A stretch of DNA of 23,498 nt from positions 1 to 23,498 of IMG/VR virus record IMGVR_UViG_2617270976_000016. The stretch is one strand, 5' to 3'. The translations under genes and the position numbers were made by a program. Source of the DNA: a virus. Its lineage: Duplodnaviria; Heunggongvirae; Uroviricota; Caudoviricetes. The notes under the pieces were generated by a model. It did no database searches. It saw only the letters and a program-made list of their open reading frames with translations, and was not told the DNA's origin. This document shows, in pieces, positions 1-21,360 of this stretch (the first letter of the stretch is position 1; each line of letters opens with the position of its first letter).

Positions 1-246
1 CTATAGTCCTCCGTTTGGATTGAACAGCTGAAAGGTACGGTTCTCGCCTTCCTGCGTTGATACATCGCGGAATGTTGTCACATACCACTCGATCCATTCG
101 TTGGCCTGCTTCATCGTCCAGTTCCAGTTAACCTTGTTCAGTTCCTGGACAAACCGTTGCGTGGTTACGGTCTTCCGGCCATTTGGTTCCTGATGTATCG
201 AAGCATGCCAGGCTATTTCAATATCGCTGCGTCTTGGCATCATCAC
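1..246 (-). CDS. Hypothetical protein, 5' part only (N-terminus at 246, runs off the left edge)
   Basis: Open frame from Met cluster at 246 with no stop before position 1; divergent from the dinI-like gene across the SOS-box intergenic region; no family recognised. Confidence 0.3.
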   Translation of the reverse strand: MMMPRRSDIEIAWHASIHQEPNGRKTVTTQRFVQELNKVNWNWTMKQANEWIEWYVTTFRDVSTQEGENRTFQLFNPNGGL

Positions 247-254
247 GCCCTCTC

Positions 255-283
255 TTGAATACCGGATAAAAACACAGTATAAA
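255..283 (+). promoter_or_regulatory. Candidate sigma70 promoter of the dinI-like gene (-35 TTGAAT 255-260, 17-bp spacer, -10 TATAAA 278-283)
   Basis: Hexamers and spacing read directly from the sequence; LexA box sits immediately downstream over the predicted start site. Confidence 0.4.
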
Positions 284-303
284 TACTGTATATCTATCCA
301 GTA
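284..303. promoter_or_regulatory. LexA (SOS) box TACTGTATATCTATCCAGTA
   Basis: CTGT-N8-CCAG dyad, one mismatch from CTGT-N8-ACAG and the same CCAG variant as the E. coli dinI box as I recall it; 16 bp upstream of the dinI-like ATG. Confidence 0.6.
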
Positions 304-318
304 AAGGGGTAATGCGCA

Positions 319-561
319 ATGTTCGTGGAACTCGTTTATGACAAAAGGAATTTTGATGGTCTGCCAGATGCAAAAGATATCATTCTGGGCGAATTGACCA
401 AGAGGGTTCGCAGGATTTTACCCAATGCTGATGTTCGGGTTAAACCGATGATGACACTGCCATCGAACAACACTGACGCCAGCAAGCATGAGAAGGAACA
501 GATAAGCCGTGCTGTTCAGGAAATGTTTGAAGAAGCTGATATGTGGCTGGTTTCAGATTAA
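319..561 (+). CDS. dinI: DinI-family protein (DNA-damage-inducible protein I homologue)
   Basis: 80 aa; translation aligns by eye with E. coli DinI (acidic C-terminus ending ...WLVSD); RBS AAAGGGG upstream; LexA box in promoter. Confidence 0.8.
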   Translation: MFVELVYDKRNFDGLPDAKDIILGELTKRVRRILPNADVRVKPMMTLPSNNTDASKHEKEQISRAVQEMFEEADMWLVSD

Positions 562-822
562 ACGCCTTGAACTGTCATATTGCTTAAGTACAGACCGTCG
601 AGACTGGCCATCATTCAATACTTGCACTATTGTAGCGCCCGCCAGTCAGCATACATACTTGATGTTGCATTTATCACCAATCGTATATGCGCTTTTGTGC
701 CCACACGAAGCCTTGCAAACCGATGCCAAGCTTTGTGTGTCCCGTTTTGGTCTCATGCCAAAAATCTACCTTTCCTTGCTTCTGGTGAGGTGACTTCATG
801 TTTCTCCAGCACAATCATAAAA

Positions 823-851
823 TTAGACACAGAGCCATGTTATGTTAATAT
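823..851 (+). promoter_or_regulatory. Candidate sigma70 promoter for the acyltransferase gene (-35 TTAGAC 823-828, 17-bp spacer, -10 TAATAT 846-851)
   Basis: Hexamers and spacing read from the sequence, about 37 bp upstream of the ATG at 888. Confidence 0.35.
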
Positions 852-887
852 ATTCTTCTCAATGATAAATTGTTTTACAGGTAAGTA

Positions 888-2849
888 ATGGGAATTATTA
901 GCTCAACCAATAAAACAAAGTCCGCATTCTATGAGCCATCTGTCGATGGGCTCAGAGCATTAGCGGTTATAATAGTTATTCTTTTTCATGCAGGCTTTAA
1001 ATGGATGCCTGGAGGATACGTTGGCGTAGATGTATTTTTTGTTATCTCTGGTTATCTAATAACAGGTATTTTATACTCAAGTAATTTAAAAAACACATAT
1101 TCGTATAAAACATTTATACTATCAAGAATATCAAGACTATACCCTGCGTTAATATCGACTCTTATTCTAACATTAATTCTTGGCTTTTTGATATTTAGTC
1201 CAAGCGATTTAGAAAGACTCGGCAAAACAATGGTTTATACATTATTGTCCGCGTCAAACTTTTTCTTCATGAATGGTTCCGGGTATTTTGACCAGTCATC
1301 TGAAACAAACCCACTACTTCATACATGGTCTCTTGCTGTTGAGCAACAATTTTATTTCTTGTGGCCTTTAATAATTCTTGCGGGTTTTAAACTAGGAAAA
1401 AACAAGTTAAAATTACTTATATTTTTGATCGGTGTTTTATCCCTAGTCTTATCGCAACTAACAATTAACTCATTCCCTACAGCAAATTATTACATGCCAT
1501 GGTTTAGGGCTTTTGAATTTGCTTTTGGAGGAATAATTTTCTTCATAGAAAAACCAAAAAGGAAAAGTTATTTAAACGATATATTATTTGTAGTTGGAAT
1601 CACCCTCATATTATATAGTGCATTTAGTTTCGGTAAGTCAACTGCGTTCCCTGGATTCAATGCTATGATCCCAGTTATTGGCGCATGTCTTTCTATACGA
1701 TATGGTGAAAAATCAAATATAGGATTTATTCTATCCAATAAATTAATGGTTGGTATAGGTGTAATATCATATTCTGTTTACCTTATTCACTGGCCGTTAA
1801 TGGTGTTTTATAAATATTATGTATTCCGTGATATCTCTACGTATGAAATGGTGTTTATATCCGTAATTCCATTTATTTTAGCTATCCCAAACTATAAATA
1901 TATAGAGAACAAATTCAGGAGAATTAACCTTAAATCTTTAAATAAAATATCATTTTTGTTTTTTGCAATGTCTATTATGACTATGTGCATTTCTGTATCT
2001 TACTTTTACTTTAATGGACTTCCTTTTAGGGTTAATGATTATTTTAAAGAGAAAATTTCTAAATCTGCAGACTTCCATACACAACAGTATGGAGGTGCAG
2101 GTTATAAAGATATAGGTGTCTACGATCTTGGTGATAAGGAAAAGTCGAAATACTCTGCCATATTGATAGGCGATAGCTTTGCTCGTCAATATGCTAGCGC
2201 GATTGACAAAAATCCTTATGGCATGAAATTAATAACATCACTTAAAGATGGTTGTTATTTTTCAATAAGAATGACCGAGTTTAATGGCGGTGCTAGAGAT
2301 GATGATTGCCCAACACATTTGATGACGGCTTTGGACATATCAAGAGATCAAAACCTTCCAGTAATTTTATCTATGCGCTGGTATGGATACAAATATATGA
2401 TTGGCCCTAAAGGTGGTAGCCCAAAAACATTTATTTCTGATAAAGAATATATTGATGAAGTTGTAAGTAATGTAAAGGAAATAGCTAATGCATTTAACGG
2501 AGTCAAGATTGTAGTGATAGGTTCAACGCCAGGAGTTGAAGGGGTTGGAGGTATTGAATCATGCGTTTCTAGACCTGATTACCTTCCTTTAGTATGTGCA
2601 AATAATCTTGTTACTAAGGAAAAGGATAACATTAATAAAAAAATAAATGAATCACTTAAAATAGAGTTATCAAAATCAAAAAACATATTATTCATTGATC
2701 CATATGACTACATGTGCAGTAACGGAGAATGTGCAACCATGTCTCATGATTATAAATATCTTTATTCAGACAACACCCACTTATCTAAAGATGGGGCTTA
2801 TGCGCTATGGTCATCAATTGGTAAAAATATAAGTGAGTATATAAAATAA
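888..2849 (+). CDS. OafA/Oac-like O-antigen acyltransferase (acyltransferase-3 membrane domain fused to SGNH-type C-terminal domain)
   Basis: 653 aa; N-terminal half is polytopic membrane protein with the acyltransferase-3 style N-terminus (…LRALAVIIVILFHAGF…), C-terminal half soluble with GDSF-like motif (ILIGDSFARQ); gene is conspicuously AT-rich and uses AGA Arg codons. Confidence 0.8.
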   Translation: MGIISSTNKTKSAFYEPSVDGLRALAVIIVILFHAGFKWMPGGYVGVDVFFVISGYLITGILYSSNLKNTYSYKTFILSRISRLYPALISTLILTLILGFLIFSPSDLERLGKTMVYTLLSASNFFFMNGSGYFDQSSETNPLLHTWSLAVEQQFYFLWPLIILAGFKLGKNKLKLLIFLIGVLSLVLSQLTINSFPTANYYMPWFRAFEFAFGGIIFFIEKPKRKSYLNDILFVVGITLILYSAFSFGKSTAFPGFNAMIPVIGACLSIRYGEKSNIGFILSNKLMVGIGVISYSVYLIHWPLMVFYKYYVFRDISTYEMVFISVIPFILAIPNYKYIENKFRRINLKSLNKISFLFFAMSIMTMCISVSYFYFNGLPFRVNDYFKEKISKSADFHTQQYGGAGYKDIGVYDLGDKEKSKYSAILIGDSFARQYASAIDKNPYGMKLITSLKDGCYFSIRMTEFNGGARDDDCPTHLMTALDISRDQNLPVILSMRWYGYKYMIGPKGGSPKTFISDKEYIDEVVSNVKEIANAFNGVKIVVIGSTPGVEGVGGIESCVSRPDYLPLVCANNLVTKEKDNINKKINESLKIELSKSKNILFIDPYDYMCSNGECATMSHDYKYLYSDNTHLSKDGAYALWSSIGKNISEYIK

Positions 2850-2864
2850 AAACCACTTTATTGA

Positions 2865-2912
2865 CTGCACCCCAAAAGTTGGACACCCAACTGAGTTGGG
2901 TGCAGTTTTTTA
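2865..2912. terminator. Bidirectional intrinsic terminator between convergent acyltransferase and tailspike genes
   Basis: Stem CACCCAA/TTGGGTG with loop, flanked by A-run on one side and TTTTTT on the other. Confidence 0.5.
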
Positions 2913-4754
2913 TTATGAAGCCAAAGTTCCGGCAACCTTCCACACTCCACCACCTACATGTATCCATTTATATGGATTTCCTGCAGATGGCGAAGCCAGC
3001 TCCCACCTTGCTCCATTGCCATATTGAGTGACACTCGCATCTGGAGGGTTATCACCATAGACATGAGCAATCCCATTTACTAGATAGCCAGTCGCGGTCC
3101 ATAGCTCAGTTCCCCACACGGAGTATTCTCCACCCTCGCTTACATAATTAAATACAGAAAAACTCCCCCCCCATTTAACTCTTGATGCTGGAGGCATATA
3201 GCATGAAATTAAATTAAGAGTTGTACCACCAACTTGGTAGTATTTACTAGTGTGTGAACCTTCAAATTCAGAAAGTGAAGAATTGTTAAATGATACATTT
3301 GACTGCGTTATTATTATAGCCTCAGCGCCACCATCTTTTACACCAACAGCCCTGAATCCATTAGCTACTATAAAAGATTGATTGACCTCAAATATACTAC
3401 CAGTTACATTCTCTACCGCACACCCATTTAATGTAATCCCAGCACATGACAGGAAAACATATGCAGTTCCATTAACCCTCTCAGGAACGCAGCATGTTAA
3501 TGTGCTATATGTTACGTTATTCATTTTTATGGCGTGGCGAGAGCAGTCTCTAACATAGAGATTATTTATATTAAATGATGTTCCTGCGGTTGCAACAACA
3601 TATCCATCCTGAACATCATGCAACATAAAATTAGATACATTCTGCAACCAACTATCACTGGTATAATACCCTGTCATTCCTCTATAACCATATACATCTT
3701 CAATTCGTGTATTGTAACTAATAGCGCTATATATAATATATTCAGACTTTCCTGTTGCAGTGCATTTTAGACTCAACCCAATTATTCTTGTGCTTCTTGT
3801 TTGTGTTCCGCTTAAATCACCAGCAGTGTCACTATCCATGTCTACCGCAGCGATAAAGTCTTTGGAAAAACTGTGCGCCACACCCTGCCACATGCGATCC
3901 GGAACTGTTTTAATATCGTTACCTGTTTTGATTAATCCACAGGAATCCATACCACAGCCCTCCAGCGTGACACGTGGAGGCACGATAGCGCCATACTTAA
4001 TATCGTAAAATCCATTGAGCCTGAGCGTACCTCCTTCATATAGCAGGCATGCAGTCAGCCGTTCAAAAGCATCACTGTTTTGCTCAGCCGTTCTGGAGGT
4101 CATCATTCCACCGTTCTCTACCGGGATATCAATATGGCTTCCCGTTCGCTTCCAGCGTTTTCCTCCTGCCGTTACAAAGATATTTACTCCATCGTCAGCC
4201 TCTGAACTGGAAAAGGCTATAAACGTTCCTCCACCAAGACCTGGTGTATCAGGGTAATATCCGCGAACTGTTATATTTTGATTTGTGAATGAAGGCTCAA
4301 TAGTTCTTAGTGTCGCAATGTCAGGACAGATACCGATATATTTTTCACCATCTAAGCTGAGTAGATCTCCACGCAATGAAGCATCACCCACGCTAACCCA
4401 CGCACCTAATCCAATCCCACCTGTCGTTTCTGGCGTAGAGCCAGCAGGAACGGTTTTAGGTAATACACCATCCCAACGGTAATACTCGCCAGAGGTTTCG
4501 TCGTGCAATGCCTGATTAGTCAAGGTTATCTCTGCGCCAACCTGAAATGATTTTATTAGTATCCAACCCATTTTTGACAATGATTCTTTGTACTTTGACT
4601 CCATACCATGCCAAGTAAGACGTGGATTACCAAAACGATCAGGCCATAACTCATTGGATTGATCATTAGAAAGATGATCGAAGTTCTGGGCGTTATCGTA
4701 CAAATCTTTTGCAGCAGAAGACCCCAGCGGATTGCCAGTATTATAAGTCGTCAT
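2913..4754 (-). CDS. Tailspike / receptor-binding depolymerase (beta-helix type)
   Basis: 613 aa; Gly/Asn/Thr/Ser-rich repetitive middle typical of right-handed beta-helix tailspikes; last gene of tail module; RBS GAGG upstream of ATG at 4754. Confidence 0.55.
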   Translation of the reverse strand: MTTYNTGNPLGSSAAKDLYDNAQNFDHLSNDQSNELWPDRFGNPRLTWHGMESKYKESLSKMGWILIKSFQVGAEITLTNQALHDETSGEYYRWDGVLPKTVPAGSTPETTGGIGLGAWVSVGDASLRGDLLSLDGEKYIGICPDIATLRTIEPSFTNQNITVRGYYPDTPGLGGGTFIAFSSSEADDGVNIFVTAGGKRWKRTGSHIDIPVENGGMMTSRTAEQNSDAFERLTACLLYEGGTLRLNGFYDIKYGAIVPPRVTLEGCGMDSCGLIKTGNDIKTVPDRMWQGVAHSFSKDFIAAVDMDSDTAGDLSGTQTRSTRIIGLSLKCTATGKSEYIIYSAISYNTRIEDVYGYRGMTGYYTSDSWLQNVSNFMLHDVQDGYVVATAGTSFNINNLYVRDCSRHAIKMNNVTYSTLTCCVPERVNGTAYVFLSCAGITLNGCAVENVTGSIFEVNQSFIVANGFRAVGVKDGGAEAIIITQSNVSFNNSSLSEFEGSHTSKYYQVGGTTLNLISCYMPPASRVKWGGSFSVFNYVSEGGEYSVWGTELWTATGYLVNGIAHVYGDNPPDASVTQYGNGARWELASPSAGNPYKWIHVGGGVWKVAGTLAS

Positions 4755-4765
4755 ATTTGCCTCAT

Positions 4766-4790
4766 AAGAGAAAAACCCGCCGTAGCGGGT
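4766..4790 (-). terminator. Short intrinsic terminator between large tail protein and tailspike
   Basis: Minus strand: hairpin ACCCGC-TACG-GCGGGT followed by TTTTT, immediately upstream of the tailspike RBS. Confidence 0.3.
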
Positions 4791-4806
4791 AATATTGATG
4801 TTTGGA

Positions 4807-7524
4807 TTAAGCTACATTGCCGGGGTAGGTAGCGTTATCGTACTGATAGAAAGTGTCGCGATACTCTTTTGCCGTTACCTGACATGTTCCATCAGATTGC
4901 GGTGCTATCTCTGAAATTAATGCGCTATATCCAACACGGGATGACTCGCAGAAAATCAGACGAGGCGATTCAATGGATGGGGCGTTTAGCATGATATTGC
5001 TGAATTTTGCTTGTTCTATTACTGATAGAACATATTCATTTACCCTTGTAGCTGCCAGCAAATCCGAAGCAGAACCATCCTGATAGCGTATCAATGCACG
5101 TGGGTTGTTGAATGTCCAGTCAAGTGGTTCTGATACTGTAATAGTCGTTACGCCATCACTTGTACTCATATCCTCAATCAACGTGCTTATTGTTTTGCTA
5201 CCAGGAATATCATCCGTGAATACTACCCTGTCGCCAACGTTATAACAGAGAGCATCCATTTCCGTTGTTGTGGTATGAGTCAAACGTTGCTGAAGGTACT
5301 TCATCAGACGTCGCATACCTATCTGATAAGCACGGTCCTGGTCAAGAACACCATCAAGCGTATAGTCCTCAATCTTTACCGGAGTTGGGTTATCTGATGT
5401 TCTGCACTGCACCGTCTCTTCAGCCCATGTAGTGCCGTTGATATATGTAACATCCACACCATCATAGTCATCTGCTGACGGAGCAACGAAAGCAGTCTGA
5501 AGCGGATCAGTCATCTCCTGTGGGCTGATTATTCCAGTCCACGTTTTCACACCTTCCCTTGCTACAGATGCCAGACCATCGGTAAGAAGGAAGTAACTTT
5601 TTCCTGCATTTGTCACCTTCTGAAGCATCTCCAGCGCAGAAACAGAATCCGTAGTGGCATAGTCAAAGAATTCACTGCCAGGGGTCCAGTAAGTAGTTTC
5701 TAGTGAGTCAATAGCTTCACGGTCCATCGCTAGCCCCAACTCATTACCTATATGATACAGAGCACCAGAAATGCTCCTTGACACACCAGAATCATAAACT
5801 CGCGTGGCTACAACGTTTACGCGGCGATCTGACTGCGCTGCCAGTTTACCGCCAGTTTCCACAGTAACCGCAATTGTGGGGACGCCAGTATACGATGCTG
5901 GCCGTGACAACAAACGTCCTCGCAATGACTGCCAGTACATGTTATCGCGACTGTTATTCTGTCCCTGCTCGTTCGTGCGGCGAGCTCTCACCTCTACTAG
6001 CGCAGGCGTATCCAGCGTGATTCTTTCGGTAAATCCCAGTCCGTTAATGTTCTGGAGGTAGTACGATCCGGTTTTACTTATCCACCCGACGCCTGAACCA
6101 TATGGCCGGTACTGAATCTCCCACTTTACCTCACGGTATTGTTTGTTCCCTTTTTTGTTATACCCACAAATCCCGTTTGGGAAGAAGAAGTTTACTTCGA
6201 ACATATCAACAACTTCATTTTCTGGGCACGCCAGAAAAGGTCCCATCCAACTATCGTTCTCATTTAAACCGTTGGCTTCAAAATCAAGAACTGTGCGCGG
6301 TGAAAATCCAGGCCATGACGGATCAACGCTGCCATCAATAACCCGCTCCAGAGTTACAGAGCTACCATCTATATCAAGAATCTTATATTCGCTTCCGGAA
6401 TGGGAAACAGATAGCCTGACATAACCTTCAGGAATCCCGGTGAACGGAGTTCCAGTGGCGCTATCGTAAGCGAGGGTTATTGATGCGGTAATCACATCTT
6501 CGCCGACTGGCTCAGAGTGAGGTATAAAATCAGCAATGAATAGTTGGTAATCAATGCTGTTGTACCAGAGAGTTACAGGCATCCCAACATAAGGAGCTAT
6601 TTCCTCCAGCGTGTCACTGGTAATTCTGCTGTAAGCACCATCATTAGTTACCACATAGGAATCAGGAACAATTAACTCAACAATTGCACCAACAGTCCAT
6701 GTATCTGGAAGATCATTTGTTGTTTCATCTCCATCATCCGTGCTCAGCCCATTAAATGTTATTGTTGGTCCGGAAACGGTTAGCGAATTAGCAACAACAT
6801 CTTCCGTGTCCGGCGCGGTTTGCGCCATATCAAGACCAGAACCAGATGCGGTTCCCCCAACCTCTGTGGAATTGAACCAGTTTTCTGATCGTTGATCTCC
6901 ACTAACGCTTTGCCCGGGTTGATACACTGTGTAGTTAAACCCATCACCAAGAGAAGCAATTGGAGTTGACCCTACACGAATATCGCCATCCCCAAATGAA
7001 AAACGCCCTCTCCCCATAACAACAAACATTTCAACTGTCATTACCGTTGGATCATCAACTGAGAATCTTGTTACAGGCTGCACTGCATAGTCAGGATAAA
7101 TACGGCTTCGTCCAAATAACTCACGTATCGGGTCGCCCAATTTTGCGTTATTCGCTTTAGCAGGATTTACATCAAGAGGGTTTCCCGTTCCTGATGAATA
7201 ACCGCCAAGGTCACCAACACCAGGAGCAAAGAAAAGAGCATACGCGACTGATGCAACTGATACAGCAACGGCAATCCAGGCAAGAGCTACAGCGCCATAA
7301 GGGACAGGGTAAATTCTGACATCACTGTCTGATTTGATAGCAAATTCAAACCATGCCTGAGGCGGTATGTTCTCTCCATCAACATCAACGGTGATCGGGT
7401 GCTTCATATCAGGCTTATAGCCCTGAACGTTCTTCGCAAGCCACTGATGGATAGTTACTGCGCCATGTTCATGAGTTTCGAGTGGCTCGCCAGGCAGCCG
7501 TGAAGGATAAATTCTGATAGTCAC
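4807..7524 (-). CDS. Large tail-tip / host-specificity protein (J-like central fibre protein)
   Basis: About 900 aa directly downstream of the NlpC/P60 tail gene; start placed at GTG 7524 overlapping upstream stop as GTGA; alternative ATG at 7407; predicted hydrophobic helix near N-terminus. Confidence 0.5.
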   Translation of the reverse strand: MTIRIYPSRLPGEPLETHEHGAVTIHQWLAKNVQGYKPDMKHPITVDVDGENIPPQAWFEFAIKSDSDVRIYPVPYGAVALAWIAVAVSVASVAYALFFAPGVGDLGGYSSGTGNPLDVNPAKANNAKLGDPIRELFGRSRIYPDYAVQPVTRFSVDDPTVMTVEMFVVMGRGRFSFGDGDIRVGSTPIASLGDGFNYTVYQPGQSVSGDQRSENWFNSTEVGGTASGSGLDMAQTAPDTEDVVANSLTVSGPTITFNGLSTDDGDETTNDLPDTWTVGAIVELIVPDSYVVTNDGAYSRITSDTLEEIAPYVGMPVTLWYNSIDYQLFIADFIPHSEPVGEDVITASITLAYDSATGTPFTGIPEGYVRLSVSHSGSEYKILDIDGSSVTLERVIDGSVDPSWPGFSPRTVLDFEANGLNENDSWMGPFLACPENEVVDMFEVNFFFPNGICGYNKKGNKQYREVKWEIQYRPYGSGVGWISKTGSYYLQNINGLGFTERITLDTPALVEVRARRTNEQGQNNSRDNMYWQSLRGRLLSRPASYTGVPTIAVTVETGGKLAAQSDRRVNVVATRVYDSGVSRSISGALYHIGNELGLAMDREAIDSLETTYWTPGSEFFDYATTDSVSALEMLQKVTNAGKSYFLLTDGLASVAREGVKTWTGIISPQEMTDPLQTAFVAPSADDYDGVDVTYINGTTWAEETVQCRTSDNPTPVKIEDYTLDGVLDQDRAYQIGMRRLMKYLQQRLTHTTTTEMDALCYNVGDRVVFTDDIPGSKTISTLIEDMSTSDGVTTITVSEPLDWTFNNPRALIRYQDGSASDLLAATRVNEYVLSVIEQAKFSNIMLNAPSIESPRLIFCESSRVGYSALISEIAPQSDGTCQVTAKEYRDTFYQYDNATYPGNVA

Positions 7525-7901
7525 TTCCAGAACTCCACTTTGACAAAACGACGTTTGAAACGCGAGACAGGAAGGAAGGTAACGTTCACTCCTGGGTTGC
7601 ACTCTGCGACATGCAATTGGCCGTTAATTTCAACGACTACACCAACATGAGTAACGGTTGACCCGGAATAACAGGCGGCACCGGCACCTATACACGGCGC
7701 GCATTTTTCCAGAGAAAGCATGAGCTTTCTGGCCTCTCGGTTTAAACCTCCGCCGTCTTTTGTTATACCTGAAAAATCTGGCCACAGTGGTAGCCCCAGG
7801 TCTTTTCGTACCTCGTTCACTATGCCGAAGCAGTCAAGTTCAGGATAAGTGCGACCGCCCTTCTGCCATATGACAGAAAGGTATTTATCAGGATTGAACA
7901 T
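7521..7901 (-). CDS. NlpC/P60 (C40) peptidase-domain tail protein
   Basis: 126 aa; Cys motif (ELDCFG) and downstream His (THVGVVV) typical of NlpC/P60 catalytic residues; position in tail-tip module. Confidence 0.5.
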   Translation of the reverse strand: MFNPDKYLSVIWQKGGRTYPELDCFGIVNEVRKDLGLPLWPDFSGITKDGGGLNREARKLMLSLEKCAPCIGAGAACYSGSTVTHVGVVVEINGQLHVAECNPGVNVTFLPVSRFKRRFVKVEFWK

Positions 7902-7910
7902 TGTTGCTCC

Positions 7911-8393
7911 TTAACTCATGTAACGAAGGCCGGGGTAATACGGGAGGGTGTATCGGTGGCGCGGCCATGCGGTATCAAGAACGTTCATATATCCGGCAGT
8001 AATCTGCGCCTGCATGGATGTCCATGACCCGCTTTTAATCGCCAGCGTGTACGGTACAGATGCCGGAGCACTGAGGTCCGTGGAGACATAGTTACGATAT
8101 GTCAGCGATGCCTCTGAAAGGTTATCCAGAGCATTCCGTATGGCGGTGGAAGTAATCCCGTCTATGTTATCAATGGCAAACTGCAAATCTTGTGTACCAT
8201 CGCTGTTTCTTGCTGGAAGGGCAATATCAATAGCCGCAGCCTGAAAGGTTACCACCACGCCACTTTCGGTTGTTGCGGTGATGTCATCGAAGCCTTTACA
8301 AAGATAATAAACACCAGTACCGATGTTTATTTGCAGGGTTTCGATGATCACCTCTTCCCCGGATGAGGCATACAGCCTATTTAGAATCGTCAT
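7911..8393 (-). CDS. Phage minor tail protein
   Basis: 160 aa; sits between distal tail gene and NlpC/P60 gene; ATGA stop-start overlap with the upstream gene at 8390-8393. Confidence 0.4.
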   Translation of the reverse strand: MTILNRLYASSGEEVIIETLQINIGTGVYYLCKGFDDITATTESGVVVTFQAAAIDIALPARNSDGTQDLQFAIDNIDGITSTAIRNALDNLSEASLTYRNYVSTDLSAPASVPYTLAIKSGSWTSMQAQITAGYMNVLDTAWPRHRYTLPYYPGLRYMS

Positions 8394-8863
8394 GGCTCAG
8401 GCCACTCCCTGTTAAGCGCAATATCAATGATGCTGCTGTTGATAATGTAATCAGGAAAATCAGCCCAGCCAGGAGCCAGAACAGGCCTTTCCCACAATTC
8501 CAACGTGGCCGTGTAGCGCCAGTAGTTTCCGCCTTCAATTGTCGGCCCCTCATAGATATCCACGAAACGACAGACATAAACATCAACAACGCCTAACGGA
8601 GATCGAAGAGGCATGTTAAACCAGTCAGCGCCATCCTTAATGGTGTCCCTGAACCATACCTCAAATAGTTGAGCTTCCGGATCCGTAAGCAGCCATGCAA
8701 CCGAGGCCTGAGTTGGCGTTGAAGTATATAATCTCCTCTGCCTCGCCCTGCCGGATGTGAGTTCGGTTCTCAGTAATGGGCTAACTGGCTTTAACCCGAA
8801 CCCTTCCTGCAATGGAACAGGAAGGTAATCATTCGGATAGTTAATGCTGGTCGTTTTAGCCAT
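8390..8863 (-). CDS. Phage tail protein (distal tail protein-like, immediately after tape measure)
   Basis: 157 aa; start overlaps tape-measure stop as TAATG at 8861-8865. Confidence 0.4.
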   Translation of the reverse strand: MAKTTSINYPNDYLPVPLQEGFGLKPVSPLLRTELTSGRARQRRLYTSTPTQASVAWLLTDPEAQLFEVWFRDTIKDGADWFNMPLRSPLGVVDVYVCRFVDIYEGPTIEGGNYWRYTATLELWERPVLAPGWADFPDYIINSSIIDIALNREWPEP

Positions 8864-10189
8864 TAACCAGTTCTCCTGTTAGTGTTCCAGCGCATCATTG
8901 CTTTCGAAATGTCACCTTTCCCACTGGCAAGGTCGCTGGCTGCCTGTTGATATCCAAGTTTTGCCCCCTCTGCCATGGCTTGCTTCATCATGGAGATCTG
9001 AGTATCAGACGGATCACCGTTAACATTCATGTTAATAACGGGAGAGAAGCTTGCTCCGCTGGTTGATTGTTGATTTACTCTGTCCAGTGTTTCATCAAGC
9101 TTTGCTGACGTCTGAGAGGTCACAACTCGCTCACCTTTCTGGAGCAACCATGTTCCTGTTTCCGGGACGCTATCAATACCATCGTGCGCCATACCTGCCA
9201 GGGCAGAAGTACCAACTGCTGCAACAAGTGGTGCAGTTACTGCCGCAGCTGTTGCCATCGCTGCAGGTGCAAGCGCGGGACCAACGATAGGAATTGCCGC
9301 TGTCGATGCGTATGCTGCGATTTGAGCCTGCAAAGATGATGCCTGTGCGTTTGCCAGCATTGATGCCGCTGCGCTTGCCTGAGTGGATTTACCTACCAGC
9401 AATTGCACTGCCTGATATACCAGCCATTGCGCCGCCATATCAGAAAGGGTTTTAATGATTGTTTCACCAAGACCAGAGAAAATATTACTGAAGAAATCAC
9501 CTAAATCTTCTGCACCGTGCACAAGGTCATTAAGGTTGTCAGAAATAACCGAGGTTGCTCCACCAAGAATAGAAGTCATCGCATCTGCAGCAGTCTGGTA
9601 ATAATCAGCTGATTTATCAGCATAATCATTCAACGAGTCCATTATCCCGCTTTGCCAGTCGCCCATCTGAGCATCAGACTTTTTGTAGTAGTCCTCCTGA
9701 ATATCAAGACGGTCATCAAGCGCCTGCTGTAACGCTGCCGTTTCCTGGTCATAAAGCGATTTGCTTATATCACCACTTTGGTACTGTTTCTGTAGATCTT
9801 GCTGCCTGTCGAGAAAACTACGATGGATATCCAGCAATTCCTTCATGCGCTGGCGAGTCTTGTCTCCCATACCTGCGCCGATAAAATCAGAATCATTAGC
9901 TGCCTGGTCATTCTGATTTTGCTTACGTAAATTAGCGGTAAATTCGACAAGTTTCAGATTTTCTTCGTTGGCTTTTTTAAGTGAGTTGAGGCGATCTATC
10001 TCAGTAGCAAGTTGCTCAAGTCGCTCTTTCTGAGCTGCATTAATTCCTGTTAATTTCCCAGATGTAAAATCAAAACGCAGCTTCTCAAGCTCGGTTAGAG
10101 GCCAAACAGATATCGGAATGGAACGCTGGCATAAACCAGCACAACGAAGTACGCCAGCAATGATATAGCGGGGCGATGTCTTGCCCCTT
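8863..10189 (-). pseudogene. Tail tape-measure protein, 3' remnant (N-terminal part deleted)
   Basis: Ala/Gly-rich hydrophobic C-terminal region typical of tape-measure proteins; frame is open with no start codon from 9870 up to a stop near 10190; first ATG only at 9870; no upstream head or tail-tube genes. Confidence 0.5.
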
Positions 10190-10271
10190 CACGCTGGTAG
10201 AACATCAGGACAAGGACAATGACTGCACAAATACCTGCATTCACCATCGCTGACGGATCACTTGTTACCAT
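10095..10271 (-). CDS. Small two-helix membrane protein (possible holin/antiholin-like)
   Basis: About 58 aa from ATG 10271; two hydrophobic segments; start overlaps the end of the upstream holin-like gene. Confidence 0.3.
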   Translation of the reverse strand: MVTSDPSAMVNAGICAVIVLVLMFYQREGARHRPAISLLAYFVVLVYASVPFRYLFGL

Positions 10272-10653
10272 TGCTGGCCCCTCCTCCACGGAATCGCGAA
10301 AGAATACTGAACAGGCTTCCCAAATCCTGACTGTTGAAAAATGTGAGCACTTTGATTGTCATCGCCGCCACTACAACAGCACCAAGTGCGTCTAATGGTC
10401 TGTCACTATACCCGGTAGCCTGTGACAACTTTGAACCAACCAGGCCAGCAGCAAGAACGCCAACAATGAATGACGTCATGAAGTAAGCAATCAATCGTAC
10501 TCGTGTGATATTTGCCGCTGTCGCTACATAAAATACTGCACCAGCGAATGCGCCAAATACCACGCCATAATCAATACCGGTTGCAAGACCAAATACGCTG
10601 GCTCCCATCAGGCCACCAGCCGCAACCGTAGTGCCAGAAACAGGATCGGACAT
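10258..10653 (-). CDS. Holin-like membrane protein
   Basis: 131 aa from ATG 10653 with strong RBS GAGGGGG; Gly/Ala-rich transmembrane segments; first gene after the Q-proximal cassette. Confidence 0.45.
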   Translation of the reverse strand: MSDPVSGTTVAAGGLMGASVFGLATGIDYGVVFGAFAGAVFYVATAANITRVRLIAYFMTSFIVGVLAAGLVGSKLSQATGYSDRPLDALGAVVVAAMTIKVLTFFNSQDLGSLFSILSRFRGGGASNGNK

Positions 10654-10695
10654 TAAGCCCCCTCTTATTGCTGTGAGTCCTCTCAAAACGAGGGG

Positions 10696-10730
10696 ATAAA
10701 AAAAGCCACTTTAATGTGGCTTATGTTTTT
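10696..10730. terminator. Intrinsic terminator downstream of the orphan membrane-protein gene
   Basis: Hairpin AAGCCAC-TTTAAT-GTGGCTT with A-run before and T-run after, so it can act on either strand. Confidence 0.45.
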
Positions 10731-10746
10731 GAATAAATTTTGAAAA

Positions 10747-11352
10747 TTAGTCATTAAGATATTTATTAGCGTCTGATATAAAACCAGAATATCTTCCTGT
10801 CCAGCCCATAGAATTCTCCATAGTGGATATATGTTTCTTTATTATTGTGGAAAGATAAGTGTGAATATCATTTATTGATTTCTTAAAGGCACACCCTTTT
10901 TCGTCTTCAAGTATTGATATCAGCAAACTTACTTTATATTTTTCTAGTTCAAGTAATGCATCCGACATTTTCTTTTCAATATCAGGACGTGTAAAGCTGT
11001 AACCAATGCGGCCTTCTCTAAGCCATTCGGTATGCAACTCATGAACTTTTGTGAGCTGGTAAGCATATTCACTGACATTAATTCTTACATGGGCAGCATA
11101 GTTTCTCTTGTCTTCCCTGCTTTGCTGATATCTAACCGATTCGTTATTTTGGCGTATAACATATAAAGAGATGAGAGCAGGAACCAAACCGCTTATAAAA
11201 GCAGCTATAATAGTTTCCCATGAAAATGAGGAGTCTACTGAAACTGTCGCAATTTTATCAATACTTATCGTGTCTGCTACACGTTCTTTCACATAAAGAA
11301 ATGGTATGCCTAACCACATATTGAGACCTTTATTATTTAAAAAGGCCATCAT
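10747..11352 (-). CDS. Hypothetical membrane-anchored protein (moron; no family recognised)
   Basis: 201 aa from tandem ATG ATG at 11352-11347; one predicted TM helix (WETIIAAFISGLVPALISLYVI) then helical soluble domain; markedly AT-rich; bracketed by terminators. Confidence 0.5.
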   Translation of the reverse strand: MMAFLNNKGLNMWLGIPFLYVKERVADTISIDKIATVSVDSSFSWETIIAAFISGLVPALISLYVIRQNNESVRYQQSREDKRNYAAHVRINVSEYAYQLTKVHELHTEWLREGRIGYSFTRPDIEKKMSDALLELEKYKVSLLISILEDEKGCAFKKSINDIHTYLSTIIKKHISTMENSMGWTGRYSGFISDANKYLND

Positions 11353-11386
11353 AACAAAAACCCGCACAATGGCGGGTTTCTTTTTT
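11353..11386. terminator. tR-prime-like intrinsic terminator immediately downstream of the Q gene
   Basis: Hairpin CCCGC-loop-GCGGG flanked by T-runs on both strands; the minus-strand T-run ends at the ATG of the next gene. Confidence 0.5.
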
Positions 11387-11428
11387 GTTCTGTTGCTCAG
11401 TTCGCTTTAACGTCCCGAGCCTACCACA

Positions 11429-11457
11429 ATTTAAGCACTTTCTTGCTCACCCTGCAA
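11429..11457 (-). promoter_or_regulatory. Candidate late promoter PR-prime (-35 TTGCAG, 17-bp spacer, -10 TTAAAT overlapping the Q stop codon)
   Basis: Hexamers read on minus strand; predicted transcript of roughly 60-70 nt ends at the terminator at 11353-11386. Confidence 0.35.
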
Positions 11458-12009
11458 CTTAAATCTGTCGCTATTTGTGCCGAATGCGTCACAAACTGGA
11501 GCGTACAGGATCGATTCTGCCAGACTTAGCCAAGTGTCAATGCGTCGACGACAGGTAATCAGCGGCCAGTCAGAATGTTTAGCCTGCAATTCATTGGCCA
11601 TCTGCAACTTGCTTTTACGTAGGCGATGGCGATCGACAATCACGCTATAGAGCGATCGGTAGTCATCATTCATCAGTACAGAAGCAATCACACCGTCCAC
11701 TAACAGCCCTTCTTCGTCTGAACAGAACGCCAGGCCGCTTTTATTTTTGCTGTTGAGGATTTCACGCAGGTACACTTCAAGTTCTGGTTTGCTGATACCC
11801 GCTTTCTTCATCCGGCGTAGCGCTTCGTTAATTGCCGTTTTGGTGATTTTCCCGGATGCCAGAAGCTGGTTAAACATGTTCCCACCACTACCACCGCCGA
11901 TATAAGACCAGCGGCCCCACATGCGCAACTTACCCTGTATCCAGATGCTTTCCAGAGTACGAAGACGAACCATTTCACCAGATTTACCAACTTCAGAAGG
12001 ATTAATCAT
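11431..12009 (-). CDS. Late-gene antitermination protein Q-like
   Basis: 192 aa; W-G-R-W motif region (LRMWGRWSY) resembling Q-family antiterminators; sits between nin-like genes and the lysis module; RBS GGAGA. Confidence 0.55.
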   Translation of the reverse strand: MINPSEVGKSGEMVRLRTLESIWIQGKLRMWGRWSYIGGGSGGNMFNQLLASGKITKTAINEALRRMKKAGISKPELEVYLREILNSKNKSGLAFCSDEEGLLVDGVIASVLMNDDYRSLYSVIVDRHRLRKSKLQMANELQAKHSDWPLITCRRRIDTWLSLAESILYAPVCDAFGTNSDRFKLQGEQESA

Positions 12010-12023
12010 TTAGCGTTCTCCAC

Positions 12024-13013
12024 TTACGCCAGTACGCCGATTGCCAGCGCACGATCTATAACCCGAAACACCAGGACCAGCTGGTCACCGTATTTCGCTT
12101 CAAATGCCACAGGATCAGCATGCAACTCGTCGTGATGCTCTCTGCACAGAGGAATCACAAACAGGTCGTGTGCCTTTGTACCCATTCCACCCTGCCCGTG
12201 GCCAATCAGATGGTGGGGGTCGTCAGCTTGCTTGTTACAGCAGACACACGGCTGGGACTTAACCCATCTCGTGTATTTCTCATTTACCCAGCGACGACGC
12301 TTGGGTTTAAGCATGAAGGATTCCGGCGTCTCCGGGTCTACCTTCATTGCCACTATCTTTTTCGCTTTCTCCTGTACCAGTTGTTGAGCGGGTAATGTCG
12401 GAACAATATCGCTTTCACGTGTTACCGACTGGTTAGTCTCTTCCTTCAGACGAAGGGCTTTATAGGCTACGGCTTCAGGTATCTCGTCAGCCAGGTCGTT
12501 CCTTACCATCCACCAGCAAAACTCCGGCAGCGTAAGAACGTGGTCTTCATTGAAGCCTAATTGACCGTTTACGACCTTCAGAAGCCAGGATACCAGGTTT
12601 TGGCGGGCAATACCCGCCAGACCTTCAGTGAACTGCTCACGAATTTTTAAGTCACAGCCCCAGCACGTGCGGATTGAGCCAGGCGCATGTCGGGTGATGG
12701 TGTAGTTGCGATCGTGCCACTCGCTATGTGGGTACTGACATTCCAGTTTTCTTTCGAGCCATGCATCCAATGAATTGAGGCCACCAGCACGATGTATTAC
12801 CTTCTGATTTTCGAAGACATCACGCATTAGCGGATCGTTCTGAAGCTCCTGAGTAGTCTCAGGCAGCATACCAGAAGGTAACTCAGCCATTGACTCTGCC
12901 TGTGGCTCTATAAGGACACGTCCACGTCTGAACAGATGCATCAGTTCACTGCCTGGGCGAAATATCACTACCCCGGTCATGGGTGCCACTTCAGGTGTCA
13001 GTAGTACCCTCAC
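12024..13013 (-). CDS. DUF968-like phage protein with C-terminal Cys/His cluster
   Basis: 329 aa; C-terminal CVCC…HH…H…C…HH pattern; GTG start at 13013 overlaps upstream stop as GTGA (alternative ATG at 12980). Confidence 0.45.
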   Translation of the reverse strand: MRVLLTPEVAPMTGVVIFRPGSELMHLFRRGRVLIEPQAESMAELPSGMLPETTQELQNDPLMRDVFENQKVIHRAGGLNSLDAWLERKLECQYPHSEWHDRNYTITRHAPGSIRTCWGCDLKIREQFTEGLAGIARQNLVSWLLKVVNGQLGFNEDHVLTLPEFCWWMVRNDLADEIPEAVAYKALRLKEETNQSVTRESDIVPTLPAQQLVQEKAKKIVAMKVDPETPESFMLKPKRRRWVNEKYTRWVKSQPCVCCNKQADDPHHLIGHGQGGMGTKAHDLFVIPLCREHHDELHADPVAFEAKYGDQLVLVFRVIDRALAIGVLA

Positions 13014-16709: not shown

Positions 16710-16786
16710 GTGGCATTAGCTCAGTTGGATAGAGCAACGGCCTTCTAAGCCGTGGGGCGCAGGTTCGAATCCTGCATGCTGCACCA
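16710..16786 (+). tRNA. Phage-borne tRNA-Arg, anticodon UCU
   Basis: Cloverleaf traced by hand: D-stem GCTC/GAGC, anticodon stem ACGGC/GCCGT with loop CTTCTAA, T-stem GCAGG/CCTGC with TTCGAAT loop, 3' ACCA; acceptor stem has two G-U pairs. Confidence 0.8.
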
Positions 16787-17429: not shown

Positions 17430-17912
17430 ATGACGACCACACAGAATGTCACTGAGTTACAACCACGTATGACCAGAGAGCAACTGATCGATGCAGCGCG
17501 TAAAGCCGCCCCTCTCCTTCCGGTTGCTTACCGCGGGATCATGACCGAACTGGCTAACCGTCTTGATATCGTCAGCGTGGCGCTTTGCGAGTCAATGGAA
17601 CAGCGTAAAGCACTGGCCATCGAGAACACCGTTTTACGAGACGATGTTAATTGTTGGGCCAAAGAGTGCGACCGCATCGTTGAACGTCATACCAAATCGC
17701 CGACCAATATGCACATGCTGGAGGCGCAGAGAGAATTACGCGAGCTAACTCCAGTAACCGATCAGGTTATTCGCGATATCCAGGCCACTGGCGTGGAAAA
17801 GTACGCAAACGTCACTATTGCCATAGGGAAAGAAGAGCAAGAAGAAAGCATTGTTTACGCTGGTAATCAGGCTCTGTTATTCGCTAACCAACTTCGTGAA
17901 GGTACTGCGTAA
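17430..17912 (+). CDS. Hypothetical early protein (first gene of early operon)
   Basis: 160 aa; RBS GGAGA; stop overlaps next start as TAATG. Confidence 0.4.
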   Translation: MTTTQNVTELQPRMTREQLIDAARKAAPLLPVAYRGIMTELANRLDIVSVALCESMEQRKALAIENTVLRDDVNCWAKECDRIVERHTKSPTNMHMLEAQRELRELTPVTDQVIRDIQATGVEKYANVTIAIGKEEQEESIVYAGNQALLFANQLREGTA

Positions 17913-21132: not shown

Positions 21133-21360
21133 ATGAGCGGACAAATCCAACGTTTTCTTACTCCAGATGACCTCTATCAATTAACTGGTTATCGTCGCCC
21201 TTCCCTACAGTGTAAAGCTCTGAGGGATAGTGGGGTATTTTTTATCCCACGCAAGGACGGAAGGCCAGGAACAACATGGGATCATGTATCAAACCCTGTT
21301 GGACTTAAGTTAATAGTGAGCAATCCAGAGGAAGAAGAACCAAACTTTAAGGATATGTAA
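21133..21360 (+). CDS. DUF4224-like protein, putative excisionase / recombination directionality factor
   Basis: 75 aa; motif LTPDDLYQLTGY; stop overlaps integrase start as TAATG. Confidence 0.5.
   Translation: MSGQIQRFLTPDDLYQLTGYRRPSLQCKALRDSGVFFIPRKDGRPGTTWDHVSNPVGLKLIVSNPEEEEPNFKDM

Follow-up and report, generated by a model that had tools for sequence, protein, structure and literature searches.

We asked whether an AT-rich acyltransferase gene, located next to a phage tailspike gene, modifies the surface sugar to which this tailspike binds, and whether the two genes belong together as a unit. The window, i.e. the whole stretch of 23,498 nt that was analyzed, is a 23-kb prophage remnant at leuZ in E. 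coli, a siphovirus-type lambdoid element. Its head genes and most of its tail genes are lost, and what is left of the tape-measure gene ends at about 10095, where it is fused next to a holin fragment. With a probability of roughly 0.75, the gene encodes an inner-membrane AT3-SGNH O-acyltransferase which acts on the O-antigen recognised by the tailspike and forms an exchangeable cassette with the receptor-binding module. The features of the locus are listed below; loci used for comparison carry L numbers.

708..756, + strand: conserved boundary element of ~45 bp (AAGCCTTGCAAACCGATGCCAAGCTTTGTGTGTCCC...), the last shared sequence before the variable cassette
757..879, + strand: AT-rich, lineage-specific upstream region holding the candidate promoter (GC 0.34 over 757-887)
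823..851, + strand: candidate sigma-70 promoter (TTAGAC at 823-828, 17-nt spacer, TAATAT at 846-851)
879..882, + strand: Shine-Dalgarno sequence AGGT (AGG 6 nt 5' of the acyltransferase ATG)
888..2849, + strand: AT3-SGNH acyltransferase gene (ATG start, 653 aa; protein identical to NCBI WP_032207781.1 / KDY19396.1)
939..1883, + strand: AT3 transmembrane domain (aa 18-332), holding R23-X10-H34, G42GYVGVD48, F50FVISG55, R80xxR83 and S123N124, with E340 just past its end
1944..2009, + strand: predicted 11th transmembrane helix (aa 353-374; AlphaFold2 helix and hydropathy peak at 354-372), followed by a linker
2115..2807, + strand: SGNH domain (aa 410-640), located by Pfam, motifs and fold and predicted to be periplasmic
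2175-2177, 2769-2771 and 2778-2780, + strand: codons of the SGNH triad S430 (in GDS), D628 and H631
2863..2911, + strand: intrinsic terminator common to both convergent genes (hairpin 2863-2907, T6 at 2906-2911)
2913..4262, - strand: receptor-binding part of the tailspike (beta-helix and C-terminal), inherited along with the acyltransferase
4363..4754, - strand: N-terminal virion-attachment part of the tailspike (Tail_spike_N), phage backbone, outside the cassette

The acyltransferase and its relatives

The sequence-only reading had described a 653-aa fused acyltransferase-3/SGNH protein of the OafA type, and both parts of this description were confirmed. The ORF is real and its two Pfam domains score well above their gathering cut-offs: Acyl_transf_3 (PF01757) covers aa 18-332 with 110.7 bits (cut-off 31) and SGNH-fused-to-AT3 (PF19040) covers aa 410-640 with 102.4 bits (cut-off 27). 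Using the AT3-SGNH motif definitions of PMC7448272, we found all catalytic and AT3-SGNH-specific motifs of OafA and OafB. The R/K-X10-H motif of TMH1 is present as R23-X10-H34, the GG-F/Y-XGV-D loop motif as G42-G-Y-V-G-V-D48 and the FFXISG motif as F50-F-V-I-S-G55. Among 36 homologues R23 and H34, D48, the RXXR motif (R80-I-S-R83), N124, E340 and the SGNH blocks I (G428-D-S430) and V (D628-N-T-H631, the DxxH block) are invariant, and S123, directly beside N124, is kept in at least 90%. In the AlphaFold2 model of the protein (mean pLDDT 89.6) the helix 353-374 is followed by short helices and then by the first SGNH strand. The SGNH domain contains three conserved Cys pairs (456/474, 559/570 and 610/615), which would fit the oxidising compartment in which the 11th helix is predicted to place it. 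The top PDB match is 6SE1, the periplasmic domain of OafB, which is also the closest solved structure (Foldseek E = 1.9e-5, profile E = 5e-5); phmmer of the protein against the PDB gave no match, and 6SE1 was reached only with a family profile. In the Foldseek ranking the PatB peptidoglycan O-acetyltransferases come after the OafB domain. An assignment as OatA-type peptidoglycan O-acetyltransferase appears less likely, as the phage and tailspike context argues against it; OatA-type enzymes act on MurNAc of peptidoglycan and are typically found in Gram-positive bacteria. The PADLOC defence models matched neither the acyltransferase nor the six unannotated prophage ORFs that were tested.

For comparison with characterised enzymes we used the GtrC protein of phage BTP1 (OafB family, Salmonella Typhimurium D23580), which is likewise a fused AT3-SGNH protein (640 versus 653 aa). 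Both proteins align end to end with 31% identity (E = 9e-72) and share the same motifs and triad, including RXXR, S123 and E340. BTP1 GtrC is an experimentally tested enzyme. The acyltransferase of the window is only about 31% identical to any characterised enzyme. OafB itself (S. Paratyphi A, PDB 6SE1) acetylates rhamnose. The same AT3-SGNH architecture is found in OafA of Salmonella Typhimurium, the abequose 2-O-acetyltransferase responsible for the O:5 factor, whose gene is chromosomal and not known to be paired with a tailspike. Residues R14/H25, D39, R69/R72, S112, E325 and S412/D587/H590 of OafA would correspond to R23/H34, D48, R80/R83, S123, E340 and S430/D628/H631 in our protein, a correspondence drawn from motif patterns and the BTP1 GtrC alignment. 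Mutation of these OafA residues abolishes or strongly reduces activity (PMC7448272). As far as domains, motifs and fold can tell, the evidence supports an AT3-SGNH membrane acyltransferase of the kind used by temperate phages for host O-antigen acetylation. It adds one more case to a familiar class of genes, represented by BTP1 GtrC/OafB, Sf6 Oac and PhiV10, and leaves the known paradigm unchanged.

The adjoining tailspike and the probable acceptor

The gene convergent to the acyltransferase was expected to be a tailspike, and the 613-aa product of 2913-4754 (- strand) indeed carries a Tail_spike_N domain (Pfam, 2.5e-20); the two genes lie tail-to-tail with their stop codons 63 nt apart. The genes of BTP1 GtrC and OafB are likewise convergent with a tailspike at a distance of 40-64 nt. 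PDB matches of the tailspike are confined to its N-terminal domain. For the C-terminal 548 aa, the nearest phage match is a Kuttervirus tail spike with 61% identity. This Kuttervirus protein is uncharacterised and the identity lies below the 75% rule of thumb (PMC8432352), which is too little to derive the O-serogroup from tailspike similarity. A partial 86% nt match to APEC-O117H42 was set aside as well, since it belongs to a gtrABC-linked tailspike of a different prophage.

Next, we compared the same genomic slot in related prophages. In L100, which is 95% identical to the window on the nucleotide level over 4363-10095, the slot holds gtrA-gtrB-gtrC. The same three genes occupy it in L101, which has the same tail genes, whereas in L001, again with the same tail genes, it holds an AT3-only acyltransferase. 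Each of these three prophages has its own differing tailspike C-terminus. Among the four same-backbone prophages examined no empty slot was found; the modification system differs each time, and their tailspikes agree over no more than the first 130-175 aa. Sequence identity resumes within the N-terminal part of the tailspike, from 4363 in L100 (95% nt) and from 4375 in L001. An AT3-only gene is also present in the slot of L019, and neither L001 nor L019 gave a BLASTP match to the window acyltransferase at E <= 1e-10. The same alternatives occur between int and the tailspike in argW prophages.

Two further known groups of systems are comparable to the locus. The gtrABC operons share with it the position between prophage-end genes and the convergent tailspike (L100/L101) and the same boundary element upstream, but they consist of three genes, act by glucosylation via Und-P-glucose and are in many cases phase-variable by Dam/OxyR. 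The Oac proteins of Shigella phage Sf6 and E. coli O157 phage PhiV10 are phage-borne O-antigen acetylases too, but are AT3-only and do not have the 11th helix and SGNH domain of the window protein. Both alter the serotype of the host and, as they impede the tailspike of the phage that carries them, prevent its re-infection (PMC9558356). Similarly, Lederberg- and Uetakeviruses carry an acetylase gene behind the receptor-binding protein (PMC10408124), and BTP1 GtrC protects against BTP1 and the BTP1 tailspike (PMC4413052). BTP1 is P22-like, in contrast to the siphovirus-type lambdoid remnant of the window, where moreover no gtrA remnant lies upstream of the acyltransferase gene.

By analogy with OafA and OafB, the ten helices of the AT3 domain would carry an acyl group across the inner membrane, in all likelihood an acetyl group supplied by acetyl-CoA of the cytoplasm; the 11th helix would set the SGNH domain in the periplasm, where the Ser430-Asp628-His631 triad would pass the acyl group to a sugar of a surface polysaccharide. 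The most likely acceptor would be the O-antigen repeat unit recognised by the receptor-binding domain of the adjoining tailspike. Lysogens modified in this way would be poor substrates for tailspikes of that specificity, resulting in superinfection exclusion at the level of the receptor, and the modification would also alter the O-serotype epitope. The exclusion phenotype and expression in the lysogen are inferred; so are the O-antigen as acceptor and acetyl-CoA as donor, which are supported by context, namely the equivalence of the slot with gtrABC and the linkage to the tailspike. Since the prophage is defective and cannot make virions, any exclusion would act on other phages using the same receptor.

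The same chemistry could be directed at another acceptor recognised by the tailspike, namely a capsular K antigen, an O-antigen capsule, ECA or an exopolysaccharide. AT3 and AT3-SGNH proteins have a broad range of glycan substrates, among them capsule, ECA and peptidoglycan (PMC9558356), and some convergent neighbours in our survey (see below) bear endosialidase-type, capsule-specific domains. However, the slot of same-backbone prophages is filled by gtrABC, which acts on the O-antigen, the closest non-prophage tailspike is the TSP of a Salmonella Kuttervirus, with characterised members of its class mostly binding O-antigens, and the best-annotated phage homologues of the acyltransferase are all O-antigen acetylases. 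We regard a different acceptor as unlikely, though it is the strongest competitor of the O-antigen.

Composition, expression and selection

The acyltransferase had been described as far more AT-rich than its surroundings. This was clearly the case: the GC content is 0.327 over 823-2912 (0.325 for the ORF alone), compared to a mean of 0.482 (sd 0.023, minimum 0.423) in 2090-nt windows outside the cassette, and the lowest-GC window of the whole sequence begins at 761. GC3 amounts to 0.26 in the acyltransferase and to 0.39-0.47 in neighbouring genes. A terminator of its own, also proposed before, was found as a strong hairpin followed by T6, with -25.8 kcal/mol for 2863-2907 and z = -5.45 versus shuffled sequences; read on the - strand, no T run stands behind this hairpin. 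The label of a moron was borne out only in part. The deviant composition and the terminator fit it, but we observed no insertion that is absent from relatives: as the slot is filled in all four same-backbone prophages examined and is swapped together with the tailspike C-terminus, the status of a moron in the strict sense is not supported.

The candidate promoter TTAGAC-17-TAATAT is present where it had been placed, and a TG at 843-844 makes it an extended -10 promoter, whose hexamer ends 36 nt before the ATG. A TGn-extended -10 was found 36-50 nt before the ATG in four of the five scanned AT3-SGNH loci (the window, L005, L013 and L007). However, promoter-like matches are not enriched in the AT-rich stretch, with 8 observed versus 13.4 +/- 3.5 in shuffles, and as this count is below expectation the motif alone is no evidence of a promoter. 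A multiple alignment of upstream regions, made for promoter conservation, was uninformative for L005, and the region 757-879 shows no homology to L001, L005, L100 or L101. Going by position and motif, a promoter belonging to the acyltransferase gene itself is plausible. No terminator was detected that would separate the acyltransferase gene from the LexA-controlled dinI gene, so that read-through from dinI would be possible. A 102-aa ORF with TTG start (580-888) runs across the promoter region; no assembly annotates it as a gene, and it was treated as spurious. Rfam gave nothing at E <= 1 on 240-3000 and only four tRNAs at the gathering threshold across the whole window. As GATC is absent from 95-1426, a gtr-like Dam/OxyR phase switch was ruled out for the regulatory region; in this respect the gene resembles BTP1 gtrC, which also shows no sign of Dam/OxyR phase variation (PMC4413052).

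We then analyzed the distribution of the gene and the selection acting on it. Searched with megablast, the region 600-3100 matched none of 50,697 phage records. No full-length nucleotide match of the acyltransferase gene was detected in any of 5,426 complete E. coli genomes; high-identity matches covered the flanks only, and a distant search mode gave partial gene matches with 64-77% identity. An identical protein is nevertheless encoded in at least three independent assemblies, and a near-identical 653-aa variant occurs on 92 contigs. The acyltransferase subtype is rare among finished genomes; it does recur in draft assemblies. Between the window and L005, dN was about equal in both genes, with 0.189 for the acyltransferase and 0.198 for the receptor-binding part of the tailspike, with synonymous sites being saturated. 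The L003 gene differs from that of the window by only two changes, both synonymous, and the orphan acyltransferase of L007, where the tailspike is lost, has a dN/dS of 0.07 versus L013. These substitution patterns demonstrate purifying selection on the acyltransferase. As the prophage is decayed, the acyltransferase, if expressed, would by now have the role of a host gene rather than that of a component of a functional phage.

These data also bear on the possibility that the gene is a silent relic, intact by chance, unexpressed (for example silenced as AT-rich DNA) and with no present function. Xenogeneically silenced DNA typically has a GC content like the 0.33 found here, the prophage is defective with its tape-measure gene truncated and its head genes absent, and the promoter motif is no better than chance. 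Against this stand an intact ORF of 653 codons with all catalytic residues kept, the recurrence of the identical protein in at least three assemblies and of its variant on 92 contigs, the purely synonymous differences of L003, and the strong constraint on the tailspike-less L007 homologue (dN/dS 0.07 versus L013). We consider such a relic improbable, even more so than a different acceptor.

Co-inheritance of acyltransferase and receptor-binding module

The acyltransferase was found to travel with the receptor-binding part of the tailspike in pairs of prophages with unrelated backbones. Positions 880-4262 of the window align with 7993-11340 of L005 with 69.8% nt identity. L005 is a podovirus-type prophage at another chromosomal site, and its backbone is unrelated to that of the window. 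The acyltransferases are 74% and the receptor-binding domains (aa 130-613 of the tailspike) 73% identical, whereas the N-terminal parts of the two tailspikes show no relationship; homology to L005 starts at 880. In a second such pair, L011 is a P22-like prophage from a Salmonella assembly, and L013 is of siphovirus type and comes from Citrobacter sedlakii; here the identity is 77% for the acyltransferases and likewise for the receptor-binding domains.

For a broader view we surveyed 38 loci (34 from IMG/VR) and compared the C-terminal 400 aa of the convergent neighbours, which bear tailspike or tail-fibre domains. With an acyltransferase identity of at least 70%, this part of the neighbour was alignable in 21 of 23 pairs, compared to 0 of 646 pairs with an acyltransferase identity below 45%; the correlation partly reflects whole-phage relatedness, and linkage at the level of the cassette follows only from the pairs with unrelated backbones. 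An exception is L031 versus L032/L033, where the acyltransferases are 75% identical and the neighbours unrelated. It is very improbable that the position beside the tailspike is functionally meaningless and merely reflects a cargo-rich prophage end, with whole-phage relatedness causing the co-variation: many homologues are indeed located only a few kb from the end of a contig or prophage, and several high-identity survey pairs also share the tailspike N-terminus and hence the phage lineage, but in window/L005 and L011/L013 the homology runs from 8-12 nt before the ATG to the tailspike domain junction with the remaining phage being unrelated, L100 has 95% identical tail genes yet a different modification system and receptor-binding domain, and L074 and L087 share 92% identity in the acyltransferase and 99.75% in the tailspike C-terminus but 51% in its N-terminal part.

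Judged from these alignments, it is well supported that acyltransferase and receptor-binding module move as one cassette, which would extend in the window from about 757/880 to 4262/4375. Its left limit would be formed by a short conserved element and a gene-specific upstream region, its right limit by the point within the tailspike where the N-terminal part meets the receptor-binding part. The earlier suggestion of lysogenic conversion linked to the tailspike gains support both from the equivalence of the slot in related prophages and from the co-inheritance across unrelated backbones. We also lean, if only slightly, towards the broader idea of a portable 'receptor specificity' cassette that would recombine between unrelated siphovirus-type, P22-like and other podovirus-type temperate phages of E. 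coli, Salmonella and Citrobacter, using 708-756 and the tailspike domain junction as anchors.

If this is true, each acyltransferase subtype would be matched to one glycan receptor, so that the target O-antigen could be predicted from the tailspike and the receptor of the tailspike from the acyltransferase. Prophage O-antigen acetylases alter serotype, vaccine epitopes and phage susceptibility. With matched pairs, hidden O-antigen modifications that escape gene-based serotyping could be recognised from genome data, and resistance to given tailspike-bearing phages or tailocins would become predictable for each strain.

Regarding the left anchor, homology of the window to L001 stops at 756. Positions 708-755 are 85% identical to L013 and 708-762 are 91% identical to L101, where the element lies just upstream of gtrA. 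Of 101 loci, 12 carry its 13-mer core, in every case oriented alike and located upstream of a modification gene, and IMG/VR contains 57 true copies of the element.

The acyltransferase gene, its product and its possible expression

Around the acyltransferase gene we located the following features:

284–303: near-consensus LexA (SOS) box, TACTGTATATCTATCCAGTA, with 2 mismatches (0 matches expected in shuffles)
823–828 and 846–851, + strand: candidate promoter, TTAGAC and TAATAT separated by 17 nt, with TG at 843–844 giving an extended −10
6 nt 5′ of the acyltransferase ATG, + strand: Shine–Dalgarno sequence AGG
888–2849, + strand: acyltransferase ORF with ATG start, 653 aa
2863–2907, + strand: hairpin between the acyltransferase and tailspike stop codons, −25.8 kcal/mol, z = −5.45, followed by T6
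2913–4754, − strand: tailspike gene, 613 aa, with Tail_spike_N domain, convergent to the acyltransferase gene

In agreement with the sequence-only reading, which had described an AT-rich gene for a 653-aa fused AT3/SGNH protein convergent to the tailspike, the GC content over 823–2912 is 0.327 compared to a mean of 0.482 ± 0.023 in equal-sized windows beyond the putative cassette of this gene and the receptor-binding part of the tailspike. The lowest-GC window of the entire sequence begins at 761, and the GC3 of the gene is 0.26. Both Pfam domains exceed their cut-offs (Acyl_transf_3, aa 18–332, 110.7 bits versus 31; SGNH of the AT3-fused type, aa 410–640, 102.4 bits versus 27), and the two stop codons are separated by 63 nt. 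The protein is deposited as WP_032207781.1 / KDY19396.1 and annotated merely as ‘acyltransferase family protein’.

The features of AT3–SGNH O-antigen acetyltransferases were defined, and the essential residues of OafA shown, by Pearson et al. 2020 (PMC7448272). Counterparts of all these residues are present (R23-X10-H34, G42GYVGVD48, F50FVISG55, R80xxR83, S123-N124, E340, G428-D-S430 and D628-x-x-H631) together with three conserved Cys pairs. Across 36 aligned homologues, the most distant of them 34% identical, the residues that matter for function do not vary, save for S123, which is retained in at least 90% of the sequences. BTP1 GtrC, an experimentally studied OafB-family member from a Salmonella Typhimurium D23580 prophage, aligns end to end with 31% identity (E = 9e-72). 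The AlphaFold2 model (pLDDT 89.6) contains a helical bundle as expected, plus an eleventh helix (aa 353–374) and an alpha/beta domain. Among PDB entries the model is closest to 6SE1, which is S. Paratyphi A OafB's periplasmic domain; the family-profile search likewise had 6SE1 as its sole match (E = 5e-5, at blocks I and V). At the sequence level we found every feature of the fused AT3–SGNH carbohydrate O-acyltransferase family, and the earlier assignment to the OafA type is upheld. The acyltransferase itself is uncharacterised and belongs to a well-known kind of gene; only the cassette-level linkage and the putative boundary element described below go a little past textbook knowledge.

The terminator proposed earlier was recovered as the 2863–2907 hairpin: no shuffle folded equally well, and a T run follows it on the + strand, while none follows on the − strand. 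The proposed promoter has its motif in place but stays an unproven candidate, as promoter-like matches are not enriched in the AT-rich stretch (8 found versus 13.4 ± 3.5 in shuffles). The region 757–879 is unique to the window's lineage. TGn-extended −10 elements lie 36–50 nt 5′ of the ATG in the window, in a podovirus-type prophage (L005), in a siphovirus-type prophage of Citrobacter sedlakii (L013) and at an E. coli argW locus (L007), the upstream regions of which do not align; this recurrence lends weak support to a promoter. The LexA box sits between the divergent genes for a HumD-like S24 peptidase (1–246, − strand) and dinI (319–561, + strand), and the stretch from dinI to the acyltransferase gene yielded no terminator; SOS-driven read-through is therefore conceivable as a second expression route. 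A gtr-type Dam/OxyR phase switch was ruled out because 95–1426 contains no GATC site; BTP1 gtrC is likewise reported to be without this switch (PMC4413052).

The genomic slot and a possible boundary element

We compared three complete E. coli genomes with prophages carrying the window's tail genes, which are 95% (L100) and 86% (L101 and L001) identical to window 4363–10095. The slot, which has prophage-end genes (HumD/DinI) on one side and the convergent tailspike on the other, is occupied by gtrA-gtrB-gtrC in L100 and L101 and by an AT3-only acyltransferase in L001, and the four tailspikes have only their first 130–175 residues in common. Equivalent alternatives are found between int and tailspike in the argW prophages. 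Since the slot holds gtrABC or acyltransferases, it corresponds to the locus at which serotype-converting phages classically carry O-antigen modification genes, and this equivalence is the best available argument for the O-antigen, over another glycan, as acceptor. We consider a capsule or other glycan an unlikely acceptor.

About 45 bp of conserved sequence, AAAGCCTTGCAA(A/T)CC(G/A)(A/G)TGCAAAGCTTTGTGT..., with the 10-bp palindrome CAAAGCTTTG inside it, form an element that was observed at the following sites:

708–756, window
about 6465–6510, L001
about 1668–1720, L101
4078–4125, L013
about 6890–6925, a P22-like prophage in a Salmonella assembly (L011)
about 6825–6850, L007
further copies in 57 IMG/VR loci

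Identities to the long consensus fall into two modes, so that true copies can be told from chance matches. The orientation of the element is always that of the downstream gene. In most cases an IntS-type integrase gene immediately precedes it and gtrA or an acyltransferase gene follows after 93–96 nt, or else it stands just before HumD/DinI cargo. Its role may be that of a mosaic boundary (recombination anchor), or of a binding site for a regulator or an integrase arm.

A defective prophage with a probably maintained gene

Window 1–12849 is 100% identical to contig JNQT01000015.1 of E. coli assembly GCA_000704325.1, where the prophage is integrated at leuZ, flanked by yecA and pgsA. Its ends and its deletion are defined by the following features:

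about 9870–10271: deletion junction; homology to the relatives' 842-aa tape-measure gene stops at 10095
21360–22370: integrase gene, adjoining tRNA-Leu
22429–22552 and locus L002 8410–8535: att direct repeat of 126 bp, 94% identity, covering the 3′ part of tRNA-Leu(taa)
22496–22582: tRNA-Leu(taa), next to the integrase

The repeat marks attL and attR of a prophage of about 23 kb, which also encodes a CI-type repressor, a CII-like protein, RusA, an antirepressor, a Q-like antiterminator and a holin. At 10095 a truncated holin fragment (58 aa, Phage_holin_3_7) takes over from the tape-measure homology, and no endolysin/lysis-enzyme, terminase, head or tail-tube genes were found in the prophage. 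The break and the missing genes show the prophage to be a remnant incapable of virion production, in which the tail-tip genes, tailspike and acyltransferase are kept intact. As a consequence of the deletion, the Q-dependent late operon now passes from the holin to the tail-tip genes and tailspike with hardly anything in between. Inside the prophage, a tRNA-Arg(tct) gene (16710–16786) separates the repressor region from the replication/ParB-like genes, and a 35-nt piece of this tRNA marks the prophage end in L013 (3965–3999). Within the early region, 17430–20741 holds consecutive + strand ORFs mostly without Pfam or PADLOC match (160, 190, 217 aa), beside a ParB-HTH protein (17912–18952) and a dATP/dGTP pyrophosphohydrolase (20040–20741).

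The acyltransferase ORF is intact in this remnant, differs only synonymously in L003, and its protein recurs in several assemblies. At the argW locus of E. coli (L007/L008, 5650–9700) an orphan acyltransferase gene, whose product shares 54% identity with that of the window, lies directly 3′ of intS; it has no tailspike beside it, and IS scraps come next. The gene seems to outlive its phage. The L007 orphan is under strong purifying selection (dN/dS 0.07 versus L013). Together these observations argue for a maintained function, and that the gene is a silent relic appears improbable. Among the database members listed for the cluster of the window protein, many are fragments of 54–394 aa on contigs of 0.5–3.5 kb (one of 21.6 kb), and the three contigs examined (L015–L017) each start inside the AT-rich gene and end inside the tailspike gene. 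The fragments probably reflect assembly breakage and not gene disruption, with IS insertion as another conceivable cause.

Linkage to the tailspike receptor-binding module

The nearest full-length homologue (P0001, 74% identity) is encoded in L005, at a different chromosomal site and in a different backbone, the ejection and structural proteins of which are about 45% identical to those of the Pseudomonas podophage Ab31. It is likewise convergent with a tailspike, whose residues 216–699 are 73% identical to residues 130–613 of the window tailspike, while the N-termini are unrelated. DNA homology extends only from 880 (ribosome-binding site) to 4262 (inside the tailspike gene), and the dN is the same for acyltransferase (0.189) and tailspike (0.198), with synonymous sites saturated. 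L011 (int, acyltransferase, tailspike with P22 head-binding domain) and L013 form a second, independent pair with this pattern: they show 75% nt identity from 12 nt 5′ of the ATG through to the tailspike domain junction, and both acyltransferases and receptor-binding domains are 77% identical. Between the pairs the acyltransferases are 51–53% identical and the receptor-binding domains unrelated.

We extended this to 84 loci (79 from IMG/VR plus the window, L005, L011, L013 and BTP1). Downstream neighbours were convergent with the acyltransferase in 65 of 75 cases, and in 38 loci an ORF of 450 aa or more lay convergent within 320 nt. After dropping near-identical copies, 34 of these 38 were scanned; the commonest Pfam matches were domains of tailspikes and tail fibres, namely Tail_spike_N, Beta_helix, P22 Head_binding, pectate-lyase-like, Peptidase_S74 and endosialidase. 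The C-terminal 400 aa of the neighbours aligned in 21 of 23 pairs with acyltransferase identity of 70% or more, in 3 of 34 at 45–70% and in 0 of 646 below 45%. For some pairs, divergence is far greater in the N-terminal part of the tailspike than at its C-terminus (L074 and L087: acyltransferase 92%, C-terminus 99.75%, N-terminal part 51% identical), and one exception (L031 versus L032/33) demonstrates that the linkage can break. The correlation is in part plain phage relatedness; it is the pairs with unrelated backbones that show linkage at the level of the cassette. On these comparisons, the acyltransferase gene and the receptor-binding module appear to be one cassette. The earlier description of a moron next to the tailspike holds for deviant composition and adjacency but not as a simple insertion, the gene being instead a swapped partner of the tailspike C-terminus. 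That the adjacency is functionally meaningless is hardly to be expected.

By analogy to OafA/OafB (PMC7448272, PMC9558356), the AT3 domain would carry acetyl from cytoplasmic acetyl-CoA across the inner membrane and the periplasmic SGNH domain would transfer it via Ser430, Asp628 and His631 onto an O-antigen sugar. Once modified, the O-antigen would be protected from being bound or cleaved by tailspikes whose receptor-binding domain matches; in the remnant, it would be the host that benefits. Experimental precedents are BTP1 GtrC (PMC4413052) as well as Sf6 Oac and PhiV10 Oac (PMC9558356), and in Lederberg- and Uetakeviruses such genes are placed behind the receptor-binding protein (PMC10408124). 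OatA-like peptidoglycan O-acetylation is very unlikely, as the genomic context speaks against it. The reading of lysogenic conversion proposed from the sequence is right in substance, with the amendments that the prophage is defective, the promoter unproven and the cassette swapped.

Two of the 34 large convergent neighbours (alignment A3) carry GDSL/SGNH lipase-esterase domains and probably serve as tail fibres or spikes of a deacetylase type; such a pairing with an acyltransferase would not fit a simple logic in which acetylation blocks the tailspike.
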